The notes under the pieces: model-generated
Told to the model about the DNA's origin: nothing
The model's input: only the letters and a program-made list of their open reading frames with translations
Database searches by the model: none
From: Patescibacteria group bacterium
Lineage (GTDB): Bacteria; Patescibacteriota; Patescibacteriia; UBA1558; GWA2-36-10
DNA: 64,000 nt
Direction: 5' to 3'
Assembly (NCBI GenBank): GCA_041665505.1
Contig: JBAYIR010000003.1
Span: 45,363 to 109,362, forward strand
Shown here: positions 19,798 through 35,553 of the stretch, one piece after another
How positions within the stretch are numbered: position 1 is the first letter of the stretch
Layout of the letters: every line of letters starts with the position of its first letter
Position numbers and translations under genes: made by a program

Positions 19798-22700
19798 ATG
19801 AAGTTTAAAAATTATAAACTAGTGAGCAAATGGCCATATTTGGCAACAATTTTTGCTTTAATTGTTGTTGTACCAATGAAAATTTCAGCCATATCTCCCT
19901 TGGTCAAACTCTTGGTTCAACCAATTTGGAATTTCTTTGTCTGGCCACTGACTTGGACCATTCAATTGGAGATGGAGCTTTTGCGTTTGGTAGCTAGGTA
20001 TAATAATTTTACTAACGAAGGAGGAGTAATGCTTGGTTGGATAGCACTTAGAGATTTATCCAATATGTTTTTTATTCTGATATTACTAGTTATTGCTTTT
20101 GCTACCATACTGAGAATTTCCAATTATGGTTACCAACAACTTTTGAAGAAAACTTTTATTATTGCTATTTTGATAAATTTTTCCAAGACCATTGTCGGTT
20201 TTATGATTGATGTGGTTCAAGTAGTGATGTTGACTTTTATCTCAGCTATAGATGAAGTGATGGCTGGGGGAGTAGTAGTAGCTATTGGTTTACATAAATT
20301 AACTCAAATTCAATTACCGGGAGACGGTGTACCGATGGAGGATTATGTTTTAGCTTTGGTTATGGGGGCAGTTTTTTTGGCTATTTTGGTGGTAGTGATG
20401 GGAGTGATGGTGATGATGCTAATGATGAGGATTGTGGCTTTGTGGGTAGCCATTGTTTTGGCTCCCTTGGCTTTTGTGGCTAGCATTTTTCCAGCTACCA
20501 AGTCTTTTTATTCTAGATGGATAAAAGAACTAGGCACCAATTTGGTAACTGGTCCGATGTTGGCGTTTTTTATGTGGCTGACTTTTACTATTGTCGGAAA
20601 TGGTGAGGCCTATCGTACTTTTTTAAATGATAATCCATCCATGCCAGGGCCAACAGAATTTTTGGGTACAGCCAATATGGTCAATTATGTAGTGGCTATT
20701 TCTTTGCTACTAATGGGTATCAAGATGGCTTCGGCTTCTGGAGCAGCAGGAGCTAGTTTTGCCGCCAAAGGCATGGGTATGATCAATAATACGGCTAGTA
20801 AATTGGCTAGGCGTTATCCAATGGCTGTTGGTAAGAGATTAGCTAACTGGGCTGCCGGCGGGGTGGTAGATAAAGATGGCAAGGCTAGGCCTTTATTACA
20901 GATGGGTGCAAATAGAATTATTAATAGTCGTTTGGGTAAAAGAATGAATTTAACTGAACGTGCTACAGATTTTAGTGAACGAGCGGATAGTTTACGGGCT
21001 TCAAATAATATATTGGCTCAGGCAGCTGGTAGAACTATGACTGGAGCAAGGGATTTCCAATGGAATAGAATTCCATTTTATGGTGGCAGAGTTCAACGTG
21101 GAGCTATGAAGGCTCAAGGTAAATATAGTGCTATGGTTGATGAATTTCAAGCTGAAGATGAGAAATTTATTAATCCAAAACAAAGAGAACAATTTGAAGC
21201 ATCTCAAGATAATGTTAAAGGCGGACCAAAATTTTTGTCCAGAGTGCCAATATTAAATCGGTCCAGACGTTTACGAGAGCTAGGTTTGGGTGATGCGGCT
21301 GGCAATGTTACTTCTTTAGGTGGAAATGCTGATAGGCGGGTGATGCAATCTAAAACTAAATTAGATAGAGGTGATATAGCAGATCAGGCAGAGGCAGATT
21401 TTGTTGCTGAAAATTTAGAAAGAGTTAATGATCAGTCAAGACTTGATAAATTGCATAAACAATGGGGTAGTACTTATAGGGATAAGGCAGATGTTGATAA
21501 GGATATAAATCAAGATGGTATTCAATCATTACTACGTGATCAAAAAGCTGATGCAGCTATTGATCCAGAGACTGGCTTGCCATATGAAGGAAGTAGATTA
21601 TTAATAGAAGGAGCTTTTCGTGATACTGACTCCGTAGGTTTGGATATTGGTAAAGCAATTTTATCAAAATTTAAAACAGCTAGAGTAGCCTGGTCAAAAG
21701 CTTTGGCACATGTTGCTCAAACTATGGGACACACCATGGAGCGAACAGAAGAGAATTTAAAAAATTATGGCACAGTGGCTGCTACAGAAATAAACCCAGC
21801 TACTGGCATGAGGGAAATTGGTTTTAATAATAAAAGTGTAGTAGAATTAAATGCTTATCATCCTATGGTTAAAGCTGTAGGATCAACTACTCAAGTTTAT
21901 CCTCAACAGGCAGTCAATCCATATAATGAGGCTATGGACCATCTAGAGCAAGGGGTAATTGATGGTTTTTATAATTTTGATGCCGCGTCTATAAATTATT
22001 TAAAACAAAGGTCTAAAGAGCCTGATAAGGATTTTGAAGTTAGAAAAAAAGCGGCTACAGATTCTTGGGAGCAAAATACAGCTTCTTTTGAGGCTGGGCA
22101 TATTACTGCAGAAGAGATGTATAAACACAGACGTCAAACCCTTGGTGTTTATACACCAGAGGAGATAGAAACTGAAGCTGCACCAATTAGAGCTAGAATG
22201 CAAAATTTAGAGGCCGGTCGAGCTAGTGGTAGTATTAGTGAAGAGCAATATAATGATGATTTAGAAATAGAGAAAAAAGCTTTGAAAGACTTATATGATT
22301 CTCCTATAGCACGTATAGCTGGAAATTCAGATGATATTGAATTAGCTATGCAAATTAGTAGCCGTTTGCCAGATAAACCAATTAGAGGCACAGCTCAATT
22401 AGAAAAGGTTGAAGATGCAGAAATTGAAGAAAAGACTAAGAAAAAGGTATCAGAAATATCCGAAACAGAGATAACTAAGAGAGTGAAAGCTAGCGGACAA
22501 ACATTCACTGATCCTGTAAATGAGAAACAGGCCAGAGCACGAGTCCGTCAGGATATGGAAGAAGAGATAAGAGGAAAAACACGTGATAGTTTGGTTCAAG
22601 AAAAAGGCACTAAGAGAGATGAAGAGCAAAAAAAGATAGATGATAAATATAATAAAGATTTAGCTAATTATAATACTGAAAGAGATGCTCTGAGACGCAC

Positions 22701-23274
22701 GATTGGAGAAGCTTTAACTAGTATAGCCAAAGATAAAGATGCTACTAGATTAGGTAATATACAAGTAGAAATTGATGGGGCTAGAAGTAGTAATGATACT
22801 GACAGATTGGCTAAATTATTAGCTGAACAAAATACCTTAACTAGATTACAAAATACTAAACGTCGAGAAGCTTTAGGTTTGGCTACGCCTAATACTAAAA
22901 ATATTTTTTCTCGAGCTTTATTAAAAGATGCTACAGACGGGGCAGATTATTCTAGGCTACAGGAGATGGATATTAATGTTGAATCGGAAAGACATTTATT
23001 TATAGAGTTAGCCAAAGTAGCTACTCCAGATCAACAAAGGCAGTTATTTCAAGAGGCTAACCCGGATCAACTTAAACTATTTGCTGAAGTTTTAGCTAGC
23101 ACCGGGCAAAAGTTGAATAAAGTTATTGTCGATAATTTAACTCCAGCGGTGAAGAAGGAGATATTTAGAATGATGCATACAATTAAGCTTACACAAGAAG
23201 GAGTTATGTCAGCGATAGAGATTAAGGAGTTTGTAGCTAAGATGACAGATGAACAATTAGCTAAGATCAAATAA
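19798..23274 (+). CDS. VirB6/TrbL-like polytopic membrane protein with a ~800-aa charged, coiled-coil-like C-terminal tail
   Basis: N-terminal ~330 aa contain 7 or more hydrophobic helices, including a Met/Val-rich helix (GVMVMMLMMRIVALWVAIVLAPLAF) reminiscent of VirB6/TrbL/PrgH. The remainder is K/E/R/D/Q-rich and low in hydrophobics. Confidence 0.5.
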   Translation: MKFKNYKLVSKWPYLATIFALIVVVPMKISAISPLVKLLVQPIWNFFVWPLTWTIQLEMELLRLVARYNNFTNEGGVMLGWIALRDLSNMFFILILLVIAFATILRISNYGYQQLLKKTFIIAILINFSKTIVGFMIDVVQVVMLTFISAIDEVMAGGVVVAIGLHKLTQIQLPGDGVPMEDYVLALVMGAVFLAILVVVMGVMVMMLMMRIVALWVAIVLAPLAFVASIFPATKSFYSRWIKELGTNLVTGPMLAFFMWLTFTIVGNGEAYRTFLNDNPSMPGPTEFLGTANMVNYVVAISLLLMGIKMASASGAAGASFAAKGMGMINNTASKLARRYPMAVGKRLANWAAGGVVDKDGKARPLLQMGANRIINSRLGKRMNLTERATDFSERADSLRASNNILAQAAGRTMTGARDFQWNRIPFYGGRVQRGAMKAQGKYSAMVDEFQAEDEKFINPKQREQFEASQDNVKGGPKFLSRVPILNRSRRLRELGLGDAAGNVTSLGGNADRRVMQSKTKLDRGDIADQAEADFVAENLERVNDQSRLDKLHKQWGSTYRDKADVDKDINQDGIQSLLRDQKADAAIDPETGLPYEGSRLLIEGAFRDTDSVGLDIGKAILSKFKTARVAWSKALAHVAQTMGHTMERTEENLKNYGTVAATEINPATGMREIGFNNKSVVELNAYHPMVKAVGSTTQVYPQQAVNPYNEAMDHLEQGVIDGFYNFDAASINYLKQRSKEPDKDFEVRKKAATDSWEQNTASFEAGHITAEEMYKHRRQTLGVYTPEEIETEAAPIRARMQNLEAGRASGSISEEQYNDDLEIEKKALKDLYDSPIARIAGNSDDIELAMQISSRLPDKPIRGTAQLEKVEDAEIEEKTKKKVSEISETEITKRVKASGQTFTDPVNEKQARARVRQDMEEEIRGKTRDSLVQEKGTKRDEEQKKIDDKYNKDLANYNTERDALRRTIGEALTSIAKDKDATRLGNIQVEIDGARSSNDTDRLAKLLAEQNTLTRLQNTKRREALGLATPNTKNIFSRALLKDATDGADYSRLQEMDINVESERHLFIELAKVATPDQQRQLFQEANPDQLKLFAEVLASTGQKLNKVIVDNLTPAVKKEIFRMMHTIKLTQEGVMSAIEIKEFVAKMTDEQLAKIK

Positions 23275-29297: not shown

Positions 29298-29774
29298 ATG
29301 CCAGAAAGGTTTATAGTGCCACAATTTATAGATGCCGAAGATAAAATCTGGGGACCAATTACTGTTCGTCAATTTGTGATTATATTGGTTGGTTTACTTT
29401 TTGGATTTATTGCTTATAAACTTTCAGATTTAACTTTGTTTATTTTCTGGATGGTGATCATTGTGATTTTTGTAGTGTTATTTGCTTTTTATAAAATCAA
29501 TGGAGCACCTTTCCATATTTTTGCTATCAATTTTATTGAAACCACTTTTAAGAAACCGGCTCTTCGTGTTTGGCATAAACAATATGTTAAAGTAGAAAAA
29601 GTTAAATCAAAAGATGAAATGCAAGTCAAAGAAGGTCCAGTGGCCCCCAAAAAGATTGCCTCTAGTCGGAAATTATCAGAGCTTTCTTTGATTATTGATA
29701 CCGGAGGGGTATATAAAGGAGAAAGACGAGCTAATGAAGAAAATAACGTTAGTTTTTCAGATAAAAATATTTGA
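29298..29774 (+). CDS. PrgI/VirB3-like small two-TM T4SS protein
   Basis: N-terminus FIVPQFIDAEDKIWGPITVRQFVIILVGLLFGFIAY matches the PrgI-family pattern (..P.d.d..edki.g.lt.RQ..yl). Two adjacent TM helices. It sits immediately upstream of VirB4, as in Gram-positive T4SS. Confidence 0.6.
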   Translation: MPERFIVPQFIDAEDKIWGPITVRQFVIILVGLLFGFIAYKLSDLTLFIFWMVIIVIFVVLFAFYKINGAPFHIFAINFIETTFKKPALRVWHKQYVKVEKVKSKDEMQVKEGPVAPKKIASSRKLSELSLIIDTGGVYKGERRANEENNVSFSDKNI

Positions 29775-29809: not shown

Positions 29810-30490
29810 ATGAAAAGTAAAAAATTAACTGGTAACCAAGCAGCTACAGCCACTCAAAAATATTTAGATATTGCTGAGATTAGAGATGATTTGGTAGTTT
29901 TAAATGACGGCACAGTCCGAGGAGTTTTATTGGTGGCCTCTATAAATTTTGATTTGAAATCAGAAGATGAACAAAGGGCTATTATTGGTAATTATGTTAA
30001 TTTTTTAAACACCCTAGATTATCCATTGCAAGTTATTATACAATCTCGCCCTTTAAATATTGATGACTATCTTGTTAGATTAAAAAAGATGGAAAGGGAG
30101 CAAACTAATGAATTATTGCGCATGCAGACCGCTGATTATAGAGGTTTTGTGGAAGAACTACTAACTTTAGAAAAGATAATGAGTAAGAAATTTTATGTAG
30201 TAGTCCCTTATAGTGCGCTCAGTGATAAAAGAATAAACTTTAAAAGTCGTTTTGCCTCTGTTTTTTCTCCTGCTAAAATAGTTAGTTTGAGTCGCAAACG
30301 TTTGGAAGAATTTAGTGATCAATTAGAAAAGAGATGCAATTTTATTGGAGCGGGTTTGGGTAGTTTGGGCTTAAGGAGCCAGCGTCTTAGCACTCAAGCT
30401 TTGATTGAGCTATATTATAATAGTTATAATCCAGAGTTATTTCAAAAACAACCAATGGATGATATAAATAAATTAACCATCGAAACATAA
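29810..30490 (+). CDS. VirB4/TraC-family N-terminal domain encoded as a separate ORF (split VirB4, part 1)
   Basis: LVVLNDGTVRGVLLVASINFDLKSEDEQRAIIGNYVNFLNTLDYPLQVIIQSRPLNIDDY is the conserved VirB4/PrgJ/TcpF N-terminal block. Its stop TAA overlaps the next ATG (TAATG at 30488-30492). Confidence 0.7.
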   Translation: MKSKKLTGNQAATATQKYLDIAEIRDDLVVLNDGTVRGVLLVASINFDLKSEDEQRAIIGNYVNFLNTLDYPLQVIIQSRPLNIDDYLVRLKKMEREQTNELLRMQTADYRGFVEELLTLEKIMSKKFYVVVPYSALSDKRINFKSRFASVFSPAKIVSLSRKRLEEFSDQLEKRCNFIGAGLGSLGLRSQRLSTQALIELYYNSYNPELFQKQPMDDINKLTIET

Positions 30491-32415
30491 TGTTTGGTTT
30501 TAACAAAATAAAACAAGCGCAAAAAGTTTCCAAAATTGACAAAGACTTAGAAAGATTGTCAGGTAATTCTCGACCGCAGATATCTCCTCAGGAACAAGTC
30601 ACTAAAGAAAAGAAACTGATTGAAGCGGAAAGAGTCTTTAGAGAGGGGATTGTCTCAGTTAGAGATATTGTGGCTCCAGCCGCTTTAAAGATTGATCCAC
30701 AATATTTGCAACTAAATAATCTTTTTGTCCGGACTTTATTTGTCATGACTTATCCACGTTATGTAACTATTGGTTGGTTTGCTCCGATTATCAACGAAAG
30801 TTTGACTTTGGATATTTCTATGTTTTTTTATCCTTTGGATATCCAAATGGTCCTTAAACAATTGAAAAATAAAGTCGGTACTATGGAAGCTCAGATTATA
30901 TCTGATCATGAAAAAGGAGCACCTCGTGATCCTATTTCGGAGACCGCTTTGCAAGATATAGAAGGTTTACGAGACGGCCTGAGTCAGGGGACGGAAAAGT
31001 TTTTTCAATTTGCTCTTTATGTCACTATTTATGCTAAAGATAAAAATGAACTTGATTTAGCTAGCGACAGAATAGAAAATCTTTTGGGTATGCAGTTGAT
31101 TTATTCTCGTCGGGCCTTATTTCAAGCCGAGCAAGGTTTTAATTCTACTTTACCTTTAGGTAATGATGAATTGGGCATTGCTACCAATATGAATAGTTCT
31201 CCTATTGCTTCATCATTTCCTTTTGTTTCCTCTGAGCTGACTTCTGATGATGGTATTTTATATGGTATTAATCGACACAATAACAGTTTGATATTATTTG
31301 ATAGATTTTCTTTACAAAATGCCAATATGGTGGTTTTTGCTACTTCTGGGGCTGGTAAAAGTTATGCTATCAAATTGGAAGTTTTACGTTCTATGATGCT
31401 GGGATCGGATGTTATTATTATTGACCCAGAAAATGAGTATCAGCATCTTTCTGAAGCGGTTGGTGGCGCTTATATCAATGTATCTTTAAATTCGGAAAGC
31501 AAACTAAATCCTTTTGATCTGCCTAGAGGTGTAGGAGGGGACAGTAAGCCAGAAGACATCATTAGAAGTGCTATTATTACCCTTAAGGGCTTAATACGTC
31601 TAATGATTGGTGATATTACCAATGGTGAAGATTCACTCTTGGATAGGGCTATACTAGAAACTTATGCCAAAAAAGATATTACGCCGGCTAGTGATTTGGC
31701 CAATATCGAAGCACCTATTATGTCTGATTTGGAAGAAATATTACTTAGTATGGAGGGTGGTGAAGATATGGCTCTACGTATTAAAAAATATACCGAAGGT
31801 ACTTTTTCCGGCTTGTTTAATAGTCCAACCAATATCAAAGTAGATAATCAATTGGTAGTATTTTGTATTAGAGATTTAGAAGATGAGCTTCGTCCGATAG
31901 CTATGTATATGATTATGACTCACATCTGGAATATTATCAGGAGTGAGCTCAAGCGTAGAATGTTGGTAGTAGATGAAGCTTGGATCATGATGAGGCATGA
32001 AGATAGTGCCAAATTTATGTATGCTTTGGTCAAACGCTGTCGTAAATATTATTTGGGAGTGACGACTATTACCCAAGATGTCAACGACTTTTTGACTTCT
32101 ACTTATGGTAACGCCATTGTTAATAACTGTGCTCTGCAGTTACTGCTCAAACAAACTCCAGCCGCAGTCAATTTGGTTCAACAAACCTTTATGTTGACCG
32201 AAGGAGAAAAATATCTTTTACTAGAAGCTGGCTTGGGAGAGGGTATATTTTTTGCTGGGGCCAAACACGCTGCTATAAAAATTCAAGCTTCCTATGCTGA
32301 ACACCAAATCATTACTTCTGATCCAAGACAGCTGATAGAGATAGAAGAAGCAAAAAAGGAATTTGAAGAGCAGATGATGGCCGAAGCAGAAGAGAATCCC
32401 AATCAAAAAAAATAG
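30490..32415 (+). CDS. VirB4/TraC-family T4SS ATPase, C-terminal ATPase domain (split VirB4, part 2)
   Basis: Walker A FATSGAGKSYAIK, Walker B MLVVDEAW, and later ITQDVNDF motif; 641 aa. Confidence 0.85.
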   Translation: MFGFNKIKQAQKVSKIDKDLERLSGNSRPQISPQEQVTKEKKLIEAERVFREGIVSVRDIVAPAALKIDPQYLQLNNLFVRTLFVMTYPRYVTIGWFAPIINESLTLDISMFFYPLDIQMVLKQLKNKVGTMEAQIISDHEKGAPRDPISETALQDIEGLRDGLSQGTEKFFQFALYVTIYAKDKNELDLASDRIENLLGMQLIYSRRALFQAEQGFNSTLPLGNDELGIATNMNSSPIASSFPFVSSELTSDDGILYGINRHNNSLILFDRFSLQNANMVVFATSGAGKSYAIKLEVLRSMMLGSDVIIIDPENEYQHLSEAVGGAYINVSLNSESKLNPFDLPRGVGGDSKPEDIIRSAIITLKGLIRLMIGDITNGEDSLLDRAILETYAKKDITPASDLANIEAPIMSDLEEILLSMEGGEDMALRIKKYTEGTFSGLFNSPTNIKVDNQLVVFCIRDLEDELRPIAMYMIMTHIWNIIRSELKRRMLVVDEAWIMMRHEDSAKFMYALVKRCRKYYLGVTTITQDVNDFLTSTYGNAIVNNCALQLLLKQTPAAVNLVQQTFMLTEGEKYLLLEAGLGEGIFFAGAKHAAIKIQASYAEHQIITSDPRQLIEIEEAKKEFEEQMMAEAEENPNQKK

Positions 32416-32471: not shown

Positions 32472-33023
32472 ATGGATAAAGACAAAAGAAAAAAAATATT
32501 ATGGGCCGTAGCAATTGTGATATTACTTTTGGCTCTTTTACTTTGGGTACTGAGAACCTCAGATAAAAATCCTAATGTTAATGAAAATAATAATACACCA
32601 CCAGTTTTTGTCCCACCTAGCACCAATATAGAGTATGATCCTTTGGCAGTACCAAAACAAAATTCTACAGAATTTTCGGCTATCAATTTAGCTAAATCTT
32701 ATATTGCTAGATTTGGTTCTTGGTCTACTGATAATCAAGGAGCCAATCTTAAGGAATTATTGCCTCTAAGTAGCCCCAAAATGCAGGAATATTTGGCTAG
32801 TATTGAATTGAATTTTGCCAAACAGGAGTTTAGCGGCAATACTACGAAGAGTCTGAGTGCTAAGATTATTAATATTAATGATAATGAGGCGGAAATATTG
32901 GTTAATACTCAAAAAATTAATACTAAGGCCAATTTAGAGCAGGAAGTTTATTATCAAGAAGCTTTAGTCAAATTAATTAAATCAGGAGAAACGTGGTTAG
33001 TAGATCAAGTTGAGTGGAAATAA
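32472..33023 (+). CDS. VirB8/PrgL-like bitopic protein (N-terminal TM plus NTF2-like domain)
   Basis: TM helix ILWAVAIVILLLALLLWVL, then a ~150-aa domain with NTF2-like features (AKSYIARFGSWSTDN ... ETWLVDQVEWK). Confidence 0.4.
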   Translation: MDKDKRKKILWAVAIVILLLALLLWVLRTSDKNPNVNENNNTPPVFVPPSTNIEYDPLAVPKQNSTEFSAINLAKSYIARFGSWSTDNQGANLKELLPLSSPKMQEYLASIELNFAKQEFSGNTTKSLSAKIININDNEAEILVNTQKINTKANLEQEVYYQEALVKLIKSGETWLVDQVEWK

Positions 33024-33036
33024 TTTTATTTAATTT

Positions 33037-33522
33037 ATGCCAGGAGGTTTTGATACGCCATTTGAACAGACCAGAGTCCAATTGCAGTTAGATGAGGAGG
33101 AACAAGCTCAAAATCCTGCCACCAAAGCTACGCAGGAAGCTTTTAGAAGGCGCTTGTTAGCCGAAAAAAAAGCTTTGAAAGAAAAAGCCACTGATGCAAT
33201 TAAAAAGAAATTAGCTCAGAAAGTAGGCACGCGTTTAGTTTTGCGGGTAGTAGGGGCAGCTTGTGCATCTTCCATAATATTTCTTATTGTTACTTGGCTT
33301 ATTTGGACAGTTCAAGCTTTGGCTGGTAATTTGATGGGTTCCAAGTGGATACCAGAATTGGAATGGTGGGAAATTATCCTTTGGGGCATATTGACCATTA
33401 TAATATTAGCCATTGTAATAATACTAATAACATTATCGTCAATAGCTATAGTATTTTCCAATCCACTTTTGGCTATTAGTATCTTGGGAACAATAATTTT
33501 TGAGGCGGTCACAGGTTCATAA
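33037..33522 (+). CDS. Small membrane protein (hydrophilic N-terminus plus 3 TM) in the T4SS-like operon
   Basis: 161 aa with a charged coiled N-terminus, then three hydrophobic helices. Confidence 0.5.
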   Translation: MPGGFDTPFEQTRVQLQLDEEEQAQNPATKATQEAFRRRLLAEKKALKEKATDAIKKKLAQKVGTRLVLRVVGAACASSIIFLIVTWLIWTVQALAGNLMGSKWIPELEWWEIILWGILTIIILAIVIILITLSSIAIVFSNPLLAISILGTIIFEAVTGS

Positions 33523-33537
33523 AATAAATTAAGCGTT

Positions 33538-34758
33538 ATGGATAAGAAAAAAATTTTAATGGTAGTGGCTTTTATTCTCCTAGTGTTGGGCTTAAGCTTT
33601 GCTTTGTATTGGGTATTTTTTAGATCCACTCCACCAGTGACACCTCCAGACGATTTTAATGCTGGTAATTTACCAGGTATTGGTGATGGTAATGTTACTA
33701 TTGTCAATCAAAATACCAATACTAATAATAATGGTTTACCTTGGCAAATATATGTTCCAGATAAAGTTTCAGATGTGGCTAGTGGAGGACTAACCAAAGT
33801 TGATGAATTGGTAAACAATGAAGTGAAAGGTTTGACTACTAGCCCCAATGGCTTACAATATTATGATACCAATACTCAAAAATTTTATCGTATCAATGAA
33901 AATGGACAGATTGAAGAATTGAGTAATAAGGCATTCTATAAAGTAGATACTGTGACTTGGGCTGGTAATGGTGATAAGGCTATTTTGGAGTACCCAGATG
34001 GGTCAAATATTTTATATAATTTTAGCACTGGTAAACAAGTAACTTTACCAGCCGAAATGGAAGATTTTTCTTTTGATGCTTCTAATAGCAAAATTGCTGC
34101 CAAATGGATTGGTCCTAGTGAAGATGACAATTGGCTAGTAGTCTCCAATGATGATGGTTCAGGTATGGCTTTGATTGAGCCTTTAGGAGATCAAACACAC
34201 ACTACTTTTGTTGGCTTTTCTCCTGATAATCAAGTAGCGGTGATGCATAGTAAATATGTTGATGCCCAAAGGCAAGAGGTCTATCCGCTTGGCTTAAATG
34301 GCGAATCATTTAAGTCTTTTATAGTCAATGGAGCTGGTTTTGATTATGATTGGTCTCCAGAAGGTAATAGTATGATTTATAGTGTTTATAATGGAGACAC
34401 AAACTATAATCCTAATCTTTGGGTGACCAACGGTCAGACCAGTGAATTGGGTGACATCAAAGTATCTCTCAATATAGCTACTTGGCCAGACAAATGCACT
34501 TTTGCTGGAGAGGACGCTATGTATTGTGCAGTACCACAAGGGCTACCTCGCGGAGCAGGACTCTATCCAGAAATAGCTGATCGTTATCCAGATAATTTTT
34601 ATTATATAAATTTGAATTCCGGCACCAAAAATTTGATTGCCTCTCCAATAGGAGCTAGCGGTAGTTATACTGCCCATAATCTTTTTAGATCACCAGATGG
34701 ATCCTTATTATATTTTACTGATGGCAGTGGAAATTTACAAAGTATTAGATTAAAATAA
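33538..34758 (+). CDS. Membrane-anchored beta-propeller (TolB/PD40-like) protein
   Basis: N-terminal TM, then repeated WSPEGNSMIYSV / FSPDNQVAVMHS / WAGNGDKAILEY blades typical of PD40/TolB propellers. Confidence 0.5.
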   Translation: MDKKKILMVVAFILLVLGLSFALYWVFFRSTPPVTPPDDFNAGNLPGIGDGNVTIVNQNTNTNNNGLPWQIYVPDKVSDVASGGLTKVDELVNNEVKGLTTSPNGLQYYDTNTQKFYRINENGQIEELSNKAFYKVDTVTWAGNGDKAILEYPDGSNILYNFSTGKQVTLPAEMEDFSFDASNSKIAAKWIGPSEDDNWLVVSNDDGSGMALIEPLGDQTHTTFVGFSPDNQVAVMHSKYVDAQRQEVYPLGLNGESFKSFIVNGAGFDYDWSPEGNSMIYSVYNGDTNYNPNLWVTNGQTSELGDIKVSLNIATWPDKCTFAGEDAMYCAVPQGLPRGAGLYPEIADRYPDNFYYINLNSGTKNLIASPIGASGSYTAHNLFRSPDGSLLYFTDGSGNLQSIRLK

Positions 34759-34761
34759 ATT

Positions 34762-35553
34762 ATGTTTATGAAAAACAAAAATTTAATTATTTTAGGATTT
34801 CTGATAGTTTCTTTCTCAATATTCTTATCTAGCATCAATGTTCAAGCAGCTGGATCGGCCACAGATTTGACCTATAGACCCAATGTGCCATTACCTATTA
34901 CTATTGGGGGCATCAATTTTGCCGGCACCAATGTGATCACTGGCGGAGATTTTTTAGCCAAATATATTGTGGCTATTTATAGCTATGGAGCAGGCTTTGC
35001 CGGAATTATAGCGATGTTTATGCTAGTTATTGCTGGTTGGAAATGGCTAATGGCTGCTGGTAATGCTCAAAAAATCAGCGGCGCCAAGGATATTATAAAT
35101 GGCGTGCTAATTGGTTTGGCTTTACTTTTCGGTGGACAATTACTACTAAGACAAATTAGTCAAAATTTTAGTTCCGTGCAGAGCTTGAGTGTCAAATTAC
35201 CAGAAGCAGCTCTAAGAGCTATCTCAGCTAACCAGGCCACTGTAGACTGGTGTCAGGAAAAGAAAGGAGCTGATGGAGATGGTGGTGAGTGCTCTGATTA
35301 TGTCACGGAAGCAAATTGTGCAAATGATGTTTGTGTTTTTTTAGAAAATCCAAGAGATTTTGATAATCGTTGTATACCAGATTTTGATAGAGCTGGGATT
35401 TTTGAAAGATGTAGTGATTGTCCTAATCGCTGTGATTGTGAGGATAATTATTCCTCGATTTTTTATAGGAATATAGATGCTTGTGATTGTGATGAGGATG
35501 GTTTATGGCCAGACACAAATGGCTGTGATGGCATTGTAGAAATACCTACTTAG
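34762..35553 (+). CDS. VirB2/TrbC-like pilin with a Cys-rich C-terminal extension
   Basis: Signal peptide ending VQAAGS. Two hydrophobic helices separated by a short polar loop (YIVAIYSYGAGFAGIIAMFMLVIAGWKWLMAAGNAQKISGAKDIINGVLIGLALLFGG), which is VirB2 topology. A ~110-aa tail follows with 14 Cys and a DGDGGEC motif. Confidence 0.5.
   Translation: MFMKNKNLIILGFLIVSFSIFLSSINVQAAGSATDLTYRPNVPLPITIGGINFAGTNVITGGDFLAKYIVAIYSYGAGFAGIIAMFMLVIAGWKWLMAAGNAQKISGAKDIINGVLIGLALLFGGQLLLRQISQNFSSVQSLSVKLPEAALRAISANQATVDWCQEKKGADGDGGECSDYVTEANCANDVCVFLENPRDFDNRCIPDFDRAGIFERCSDCPNRCDCEDNYSSIFYRNIDACDCDEDGLWPDTNGCDGIVEIPT

Follow-up and report, generated by a model that had tools for sequence, protein, structure and literature searches.

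A TrsD-family gene adjoining a VirB4 ATPase gene that lacks the first N-terminal sub-module in a chromosomal type IV secretion locus of Patescibacteria

The 64,000-nucleotide stretch of Patescibacteria group bacterium DNA analyzed here (the window) carries a chromosomal type IV secretion system (T4SS) locus typical of Patescibacteria (Komeilibacteria-like lineage), located amid the housekeeping genes S6, SSB, S18, EF-P and RecG. The T4SS motor is most probably encoded by a trio of genes, coding for a PrgI/VirB3-like protein, a 226-aa TrsD-family protein (ORF1) and a 641-aa VirB4 ATPase (ORF2), in which TrsD would be the first sub-module of the VirB4 N-terminal domain (roughly its initial 140–200 residues) in detached form and would complete an ATPase whose own gene retains just the P-loop domain and the second N-domain sub-module. 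The TrsD plus VirB4 arrangement is already known from Patescibacteria and from conjugative plasmids of Gram-positive bacteria, and the present analysis is an incremental refinement and not a discovery; its relevance lies in the reported essentiality of the T4SS for the epibiotic lifestyle of Patescibacteria.

The stop codon of ORF1 and the start codon of ORF2 share a single base (junction sequence aacaTAATGttt), and the coordinates of the two genes (Table 1) agree with the pair of ORFs and the 1-nt TAATG overlap described in an earlier, sequence-only reading of this DNA; the peptide blocks quoted there are present in the ORF1 translation. Exact copies of the two proteins are in the public records as MFA6466739.1 (ORF1; hypothetical protein) and MFA6466740.1 (ORF2; DUF87 domain-containing protein), consecutive entries of a 129 kb Patescibacteria contig, and identical copies are also recorded on other contigs in the Logan collection.

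Table 1. Coordinates of the predicted T4SS genes and sequence features, numbered from the first base of the window.
Feature	Coordinates	Strand	Description
PrgI family (VirB3-like) membrane protein	29298..29774	+	158 aa; Pfam PF12666 PrgI, E 4.2e-11, 43.7 bits vs cut-off 27
ORF1	29810..30490	+	226 aa, ATG start, TAA stop 30488-30490; TrsD-family, soluble
TAATG junction	30488..30492	+	One base common to ORF1 TAA stop and ORF2 ATG
ORF2	30490..32415	+	641 aa, ATG 30490-30492; VirB4-type ATPase without first N-terminal sub-module
Walker A GAGKS	31348..31362	+	ORF2 aa 287-291; invariant in ORF2 homologue alignment
Walker B LVVDEAW	31963..31983	+	ORF2 aa 492-498; D495, E496, A497 and W498 invariant in alignment
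Four co-oriented downstream genes	32472..35553	+	183, 161, 406 and 263 aa; hydrophobic segments in all four, N-terminal or internal

The ORF1 product has no hydrophobic segment, and in profile searches it matches the first ~120–140 positions of full-length VirB4 proteins, to which it appears equivalent (CD1110 VirB4 positions 18–122, VirB4_plasma 92–235 and PRK13853 12–140, some of these matches being weak, with E values of 0.0048 and 0.027). It is seemingly a distant relative of the TrsD/TraD family described by NCBIfam model NF041427 (E 1.7e-8), lying outside that narrow subfamily with 34.5 bits against a curated cut-off of 200, and hhalign aligns it with residues 27–158 of pSK41 TrsD (probability 88.6%, E 2.6e-6). 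The precomputed Pfam assignment PF26593.2 is present on the identical protein (P0001) and on all 120 homologues listed; the local Pfam copy gave no match for ORF1, and a literature search for 'PF26593' returned nothing. A search of the ORF1 sequence against PDB chains gave no meaningful match, and an hhalign comparison of the ORF1 alignment with R388 VirB4 (TrwK) alone fell short of significance (probability 1.7%), with the aligned position (TrwK 93–139) being consistent. TrwK is the best structural match of the predicted ORF1 model, which is of moderate confidence (pLDDT 69, pTM 0.55; Foldseek E weak, about 1e-2); the fold searches give no TrwK coordinates, and the N-terminal placement of ORF1 follows from the sequence profiles and the colinear fusions described below. 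Together, the profile matches, the BLASTP alignment to a fused protein and the TrwK fold match bear out the proposal that ORF1 contains the VirB4 N-terminal block. When hhalign was used to ask whether the second N-domain sub-module of ORF2 is a sequence duplicate of ORF1, it detected no similarity.

ORF2 codes for a predicted VirB4 family ATPase with Walker A and B motifs, and is laid out as a variable linker (aa 1–~50), a second N-domain sub-module (aa ~55–225) and a P-loop ATPase domain (aa ~250–610). It scores above the cut-off of the NCBIfam CD1110 VirB4 family (347.4 bits vs 325; profile positions 141–729 of 752), and it also matches VirB4_plasma (profile positions 276–893), TIGR00929 VirB4_CagE (237–736 of 792) and Pfam P-loop_TraG (E 1.3e-28), with matches under the Pfam curated cut-offs to CagE_TrbE_VirB (120–196 of 204) and TraC_F_IV (274–373 of 375). 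Residues 250–609 match the VirB4 C-terminal domain structure (PDB 4AG5, E 7.7e-48), and hhalign pairs residues 59–607 with pSK41 TrsE residues 36–626 (probability 99.9%); the ORF2 AF2 model is poor (pLDDT 50.5) and was left out of the fold searches. A complete VirB4 N-terminal domain, about 400 aa in R388 TrwK, is absent from ORF2, the three VirB4 family profile matches starting at positions 141, 276 and 237 and only ~55 poorly conserved residues preceding the second sub-module; the missing portion would be supplied by ORF1. The sequence-only reading had ORF2 as the ATPase domain and the junction as the border between the N-terminal and ATPase domains. The Walker motifs uphold the former in part, residues ~55–225 being the second half of the N-terminal domain, but the HMM matches that it had proposed as a check on the domain boundary put the cut within the N-terminal domain, around VirB4 position 140–240.

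ORF1 and ORF2 are, as judged by these coordinates, complementary and colinear on full-length VirB4 profiles. Single-chain VirB4 proteins such as R388 TrwK (823 aa), the CD1110 family of Clostridia ICEs and the mycoplasma ICE protein have profiles that ORF1 plus ORF2 cover colinearly, and their ATPase domain is clearly homologous to that of ORF2; the difference is that the N-terminal domain is here distributed over two polypeptides, and that the tail of ORF1 and the variable N-terminus of ORF2 add roughly 60–130 residues around the cut relative to fused forms. Natural fusions in the expected order occur in two lineages. One is P0351 (898 aa), with a TrsD part (2–223), a distinct Pro/Ala-rich linker of ~95 aa and a VirB4 part (322–890), whose size accords with the earlier suggestion that 226 and 641 aa sum to one VirB4; it is the only fusion among the best 150 cluster representatives at 50% identity. 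The other is a PrgI–TrsD–VirB4 triple fusion in Vescimonas (WP_212822118.1, 942 aa), where ORF1 17–141 aligns by BLASTP to 131–254 (E 4e-10) and ORF2 55–610 to 333–925. VirB3–VirB4 fusions are known as well, and the Vescimonas protein has the same three modules in the same order as here, in the opposite gene architecture of one polypeptide instead of three. Two N-terminally extended TrsD homologues, P0242 and P0275, were considered as PrgI–TrsD fusions and rejected, the extensions being low-complexity, Q/P/S-rich and without a Pfam match.

The abutment of the two frames at a single base, and two lengths that sum to one VirB4, could suggest that one virB4 gene has been split by a single-base error of sequencing or assembly, or has recently become a pseudogene, as the sequence-only reading had allowed. 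The orthologous loci, whose comparison that reading had called for, make this exceedingly improbable: a stop codon separates the TrsD and VirB4 genes in all 76 species-representative related loci that have VirB4 downstream, with no fused ORF crossing the junction in any of them (0/76). The junctions vary in spacing (–8 in 17 loci, –1 in 14, –4 in three, +1 in nine, +4 in six, and gaps up to +225 nt), all three relative frames are used, VirB4 has its own ATG in each, and in 22 loci the alignment to ORF2 begins at the Met itself. Homologues of each half are themselves half-size: ORF1 has 1698, of which the 120 listed are 197–234 aa (nearly all 221–234) with identity down to 58%, and the best 120 homologues of ORF2 are all 563–682 aa with identity down to 69%. 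There are 42 invariant columns in an alignment of 61 ORF1 sequences, and the same split is present in the finished plasmids pSK41 and Bacillus thuringiensis pP05_2-e; the identical Logan copies likewise speak against an error. The split is real and ancient, and the proposed genuine two-polypeptide VirB4 stands; its description as unusual does not, the arrangement being the norm within this clade of Patescibacteria, found also in pSK41/pGO1-type and Bacillus plasmids, and in the literature as TrsD plus VirB4 (PMC12102498).

Programmed ribosomal frameshifting or stop bypass at the TAATG, giving a fused full-length VirB4 beside or instead of the two proteins, would be compatible with the overlapping frames and with the existence of the fused P0351. 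The chance of this is minimal, since the relatives (–8 to +225 nt) have neither a conserved slippery sequence nor a fixed frame relation, and in P0351 the Pro/Ala-rich linker is coded in frame in the ordinary way; this reading and the frameshift or pseudogene reading are both rejected on the comparative junction data. Translational coupling of ORF1 and ORF2 is plausible, with no specific support beyond proximity because tight spacing and the absence of Shine-Dalgarno sequences hold window-wide: a spacing of a few bases is frequent between same-strand neighbors across the whole window, and a Shine-Dalgarno motif was found at 0 of 46 window ORFs and is hence uninformative as a coupling test at the junction. 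The 1-nt overlap, earlier taken to favor coupling, is weak evidence for it given this spacing and the varied junction geometry of the relatives.

Upstream of the pair, the PrgI-family protein has two hydrophobic segments (aa 17–49 and 51–74), and 76 of 80 related loci have a PrgI homologue immediately upstream of TrsD, so that a small soluble protein encoded between PrgI and VirB4 genes is a layout shared by ORF1, these loci and pSK41. The four downstream genes, by their position, probably encode additional envelope proteins of this locus; the 263-aa product has a weak match to VirB2-type pilins (Pfam T4SS_pilin, E 0.033, under the cut-off). Among the ORFs annotated in the 5–38 kb part of the window, neither a relaxase nor a type IV coupling protein was seen. 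A neighboring VirB4 may not be the partner of TrsD in every case, because three related loci have no VirB4 within 4 kb of the TrsD homologue and unlinked TrsD is reported in Gracilibacteria (2025 survey, PMC12102498).

These features correspond closely to those of surveyed Patescibacteria T4SS (PMC12102498, PMC10633639), which have a Patescibacteria-specific VirB4 clade, adjoining TrsD and PrgI/VirB3 homologues, possible VirB2-like pilin genes, a chromosomal location and no relaxase nearby; nothing substantive differs. According to Quinonero-Coronel et al. 2025 (PMC12102498), no T4SS component is more abundant near virB4 in Patescibacteria than TrsD, which is a remote homologue of the VirB4 N-terminus; we take this homology statement from that paper, 'TrsD' not occurring in the Guglielmini et al. 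2014 main text. Coupling-protein genes are usually far from virB4 in Patescibacteria, and relaxases are mostly absent (PMC12102498). The survey text consulted assigns TrsD no function and does not spell out that Patescibacteria VirB4 lacks a TrsD-equivalent portion (PMC12102498); this lack is shown here by complementary profile coordinates. The T4SS of the cultivated relative Southlakia epibionticum is reportedly essential for epibiotic growth (Wang et al. 2023, PMC10633639), and a TrsD homologue is listed as essential in this organism with other T4SS genes (PMC12102498).

The profile complementarity and the rare fusions provide a testable prediction for TrsD, namely completion of the VirB4 N-terminal domain, through which VirB4 contacts VirB3/PrgI. 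In R388, VirB3 wraps this domain (residues 15–400), which also mediates dimerisation (PMC9259494). TrsD would bind a VirB4 subunit and PrgI non-covalently, rebuilding the membrane-proximal N-terminal domain, and the joint supply of both parts may be aided by the adjacency of their genes within a single operon, here with a base common to stop and start; the ATPase would then power assembly and transport in a system with no relaxase or coupling protein seen nearby. TrsD could instead be an independent accessory factor descended from a VirB4 N-terminal fragment, such as an assembly chaperone, a regulator, or an adaptor for PrgI or substrates, and not a stoichiometric part of the ATPase. We regard this as unlikely, as the TrsD-matched region is absent from ORF2 and present in full-length VirB4, the two lineages of fusions keep the expected order, the tight PrgI–TrsD–VirB4 order is conserved, and the reported essentiality extends to the TrsD homologue.

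A further, decidedly speculative suggestion about the detached sub-module is that its detachment is functional and not neutral, with free TrsD being an exchangeable adaptor that governs the timing and site of VirB4 hexamer docking onto membrane-bound PrgI. If so, the essential non-conjugative T4SS of Patescibacteria would have an assembly checkpoint absent from single-chain VirB4 systems, and orphan TrsD copies and variants with long extensions would be alternative adaptors. For annotation, MFA6466739.1 can be named a TrsD-family protein, the putative detached VirB4 N-terminal module, and the gene pair treated as not frameshifted.

Among known systems, the TrsC–TrsD–TrsE genes of pSK41/pGO1 (Staphylococcus aureus; MPF_FATA class, pGO1 subclass) have the gene order and sizes seen here: trsC codes for 135 aa (158 aa for the membrane protein here), trsD for 227 aa (226 aa) and trsE for 672 aa (641 aa), and TrsE, like ORF2, is a VirB4-type ATPase without the first N-module. 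Sequence identity is low, the pSK41 junction is a 14-nt gap whereas the genes here overlap, and pSK41, a conjugative plasmid, carries both a relaxase and a coupling protein, whereas the locus here is chromosomal with neither seen nearby. TraD of the pELF plasmid paper is unrelated to the TrsD/TraD discussed here. The same order recurs in B. thuringiensis pP05_2-e as PrgI-family, 227-aa and 630-aa genes, and in a Pontibacillus plasmid 274-aa and 621-aa genes follow a 116-aa ORF that is unannotated.

Housekeeping genes of the chromosome (those for LeuRS, KsgA, ribosomal protein S6, SSB, S18 and EF-P, and for RecG on the opposite strand) surround the pair in a window of 34.7% G+C, with a PrgI-family gene directly 5' of ORF1. 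The ORF1/ORF2 junction reads aacaTAATGttt, in which the stop codon TAA and the start codon ATG have one base in common; coordinates and junction agree with the sequence-only reading of two overlapping ORFs (226 + 641 aa) sharing a base at TAATG. Both proteins, with exactly these sequences, have consecutive public entries in a Patescibacteria MAG, MFA6466739.1 ('hypothetical protein') and MFA6466740.1 ('DUF87 domain-containing protein'), and identical copies are recorded in other contigs from the Logan collection.

Coordinates of the ORF pair and of other genes discussed
Feature	Coordinates	Strand	Basis or description
ORF1, 226 aa	29810..30490	+	ORF call
ORF2, 641 aa	30490..32415	+	ORF call
PrgI-family (VirB3-like) protein, 158 aa, two hydrophobic segments	29298..29774	as ORF1	Pfam PF12666, E 4.2e-11
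Possible VirB2-like pilin, 263 aa, locus end	34762-35553		three hydrophobic segments, Cys-rich C-terminus
1158-aa protein	19798-23274		N-terminal part (aa 7-306) with about seven hydrophobic segments, then large hydrophilic region
Giant protein, 2889 aa	11100-19769		adjoins 1158-aa protein; sole match a CBM_4_9 carbohydrate-binding domain

Profile matches identify ORF2 as a VirB4-type ATPase. Against the CD1110 model of the VirB4 family, where the cut-off is 325, it reaches 347.4 bits and covers positions 141-729 of the 752 in the profile; further matches are to Pfam P-loop_TraG (E 1.3e-28) and to 4AG5, a solved structure of the VirB4 C-terminal domain (E 7.7e-48). Two motifs are invariant in relatives, GAGKS of Walker A at aa 287-291 and DEAW of Walker B. 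Its assigned order is a variable leader of ~50 residues, a second N-sub-module (aa ~55-225) and the ATPase domain; the second N-sub-module region has matches to Pfam CagE_TrbE_VirB (120-196) and TraC_F_IV (274-373), both under the Pfam cut-off.

ORF1 matches the TrsD/TraD family model (E 1.7e-8) and, with some weak matches, the N-terminal positions of full-length VirB4 profiles: it aligns at CD1110 18-122, whereas ORF2 aligns at 141-729; at VirB4_plasma 92-235, against 276-893 for ORF2; and at 12-140 of the Agrobacterium-type PRK13853, with ORF2 at TIGR00929 237-736. Fold searches report matches without aligned ranges. Two natural fusions confirm, by alignment, the order TrsD then VirB4. A 942-aa Vescimonas protein has all three modules fused (131-254 aligning to ORF1 17-141, and 333-925 to ORF2 55-610), and P0351 (898 aa, from a relative), the sole TrsD-VirB4 fusion in the 150 cluster representatives that best match the ORF1 profile, consists of a TrsD part (2-223), a Pro/Ala-rich linker of ~95 aa that is probably disordered, and a VirB4 part (322-890) with 51% identity to ORF2. 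Complementary profile positions and colinear fusions together identify ORF1 with the first of the sub-modules in the N-terminal domain of VirB4, in keeping with the N-terminal block recognized in the sequence-only reading. The cut had been expected at the border between N-domain and ATPase; it falls instead within the N-terminal domain, which in TrwK, the VirB4 of R388, spans residues 15-400 (PMC9259494), and ORF2 keeps the second sub-module.

In ORF1 the predicted secondary-structure elements run three strands, helix, strand, two helices, strand, helices, strand, helix, an order very close to that in the second N-module of ORF2 (30650-31135, aa ~60-215); a profile comparison of the two found no sequence similarity. 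There is a hint that the VirB4 N-terminal domain could be an ancient tandem duplication, the predicted ORF2 structure being of low confidence (pLDDT 50.5), too low for use. We also note numerous longer TrsD homologues (280-445 aa; P0242, P0275, P0254, P0260 and others), some with Q/P/S-rich low-complexity N-terminal extensions and others with C-terminal extensions of 100-200 aa without a Pfam match.

A one-base assembly frameshift or a pseudogene had been offered as alternatives to a genuine two-polypeptide VirB4, and the relatives decide for the latter. At E <= 1e-3 the homologues of ORF1 number 1698; those listed, 120 with identity down to 58%, are 197-234 aa long (nearly all 221-234). The best 120 ORF2 homologues are 563-682 aa. 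The proposed comparison of orthologous loci drew on 80 loci from species-representative genomes (48-87% identity; labelled Komeili-, Falkow-, Magasanik-, Buchanan-, Kuenen- and Nomurabacteria), and a stop codon separates the TrsD and VirB4 genes in all 76 with VirB4 downstream. Junction spacings in these 76 vary (-8 nt, n=17; -1, n=14; -4, n=3; +1, n=9; +4, n=6; otherwise small gaps, to a maximum of +225 nt), and all three relative frames occur. Taken together, these observations rule out an assembly indel, a recent pseudogene and a conserved programmed frameshift.

The sequence-only reading took the 1-nt overlap as a sign of translational coupling. Coupling is plausible, with no specific support: the TAATG overlap is not a conserved feature of the 76 loci, and few-base spacing is common among same-strand neighbours across the window. 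None of the 46 long ORFs of the window, whose leaders are A/T-rich, has a Shine-Dalgarno-like motif (AGGA, GGAG, GAGG) within 18 nt upstream, so its absence at the junction is uninformative on coupling; the organism apparently starts translation without SD motifs.

The arrangement, described as unusual in the sequence-only reading, has counterparts. Plasmid pSK41 carries, in the same order, trsC (135 aa), trsD (annotated 'TrsD/TraD family conjugative transfer protein', 227 aa) and the gene for TrsE, a DUF87 ATPase of 672 aa; TrsD aligns with ORF1 (hhalign probability 88.6%, E 2.6e-6) and TrsE with ORF2 nearly end to end (99.9%; TrsE 36-626 to ORF2 59-607). A Bacillus thuringiensis plasmid has PrgI-family, 227-aa and 630-aa genes so ordered, and in a Pontibacillus plasmid genes of 274 and 621 aa follow a 116-aa ORF that has no annotation. 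Of the T4SS components found in Patescibacteria, TrsD is reported as the most abundant (2,272 homologues, 1,664 virB4-associated), with remote homology to the VirB4 N-terminal portion, no assigned function, and a homologue listed as essential in S. epibionticum ML1 (Quinonero-Coronel et al. 2025, PMC12102498); the S. epibionticum T4SS is described as essential and Gram-positive-like, without recognisable relaxase or coupling protein (Wang et al. 2023, PMC10633639). The TrsD plus VirB4 arrangement is thus already published and ordinary for the clade, and the present analysis adds the explicit complementarity of ORF1 and ORF2, the cut position and the junction statistics.

TrsD and VirB4 are thus shown to be encoded separately and to complement each other in colinear order, and natural fusions exist. 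In R388, VirB3 wraps the VirB4 N-terminal domain, which also mediates VirB4 dimer contacts (PMC9259494). By analogy, the most likely role of TrsD is to bind PrgI as well as the truncated VirB4, which would give the ATPase hexamer a rebuilt, complete N-terminal domain close to the membrane.

A PrgI homologue lies immediately 5' of TrsD in 76 of the 80 loci. Three TrsD homologues of ~55% identity (L059, L068, L077) lack a VirB4 homologue in the 4 kb downstream of them, and L059 and L068 also lack an upstream PrgI; these may be orphan or second copies. In L060 (Candidatus Magasanikbacteria, JACROI010000003.1, 4768-8610) the ORF of the VirB4 homologue is 1280 aa long and has an insertion of ~630 aa near the P-loop; judged by its Intein_splicing and LAGLIDADG_3 domains, the insertion appears to be a homing-endonuclease intein within the region of the ATPase motif. 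Many of the 80 loci (e.g. L011, L012, L015-L017) come from records titled 'uncultured Gammaproteobacteria bacterium', yet their PrgI-TrsD-VirB4 genes have 50-78% identity to those of the window; these TPA MAG records seem to be taxonomically mislabelled.

Elsewhere in the window, the 263-aa protein is possibly a VirB2-like pilin, as reported for Patescibacteria T4SS, its T4SS_pilin match being weak (E 0.033, under cut-off). The 1158-aa protein, with no match in a Pfam search, resembles 'extended VirB6' proteins in layout and may have a link to the T4SS.
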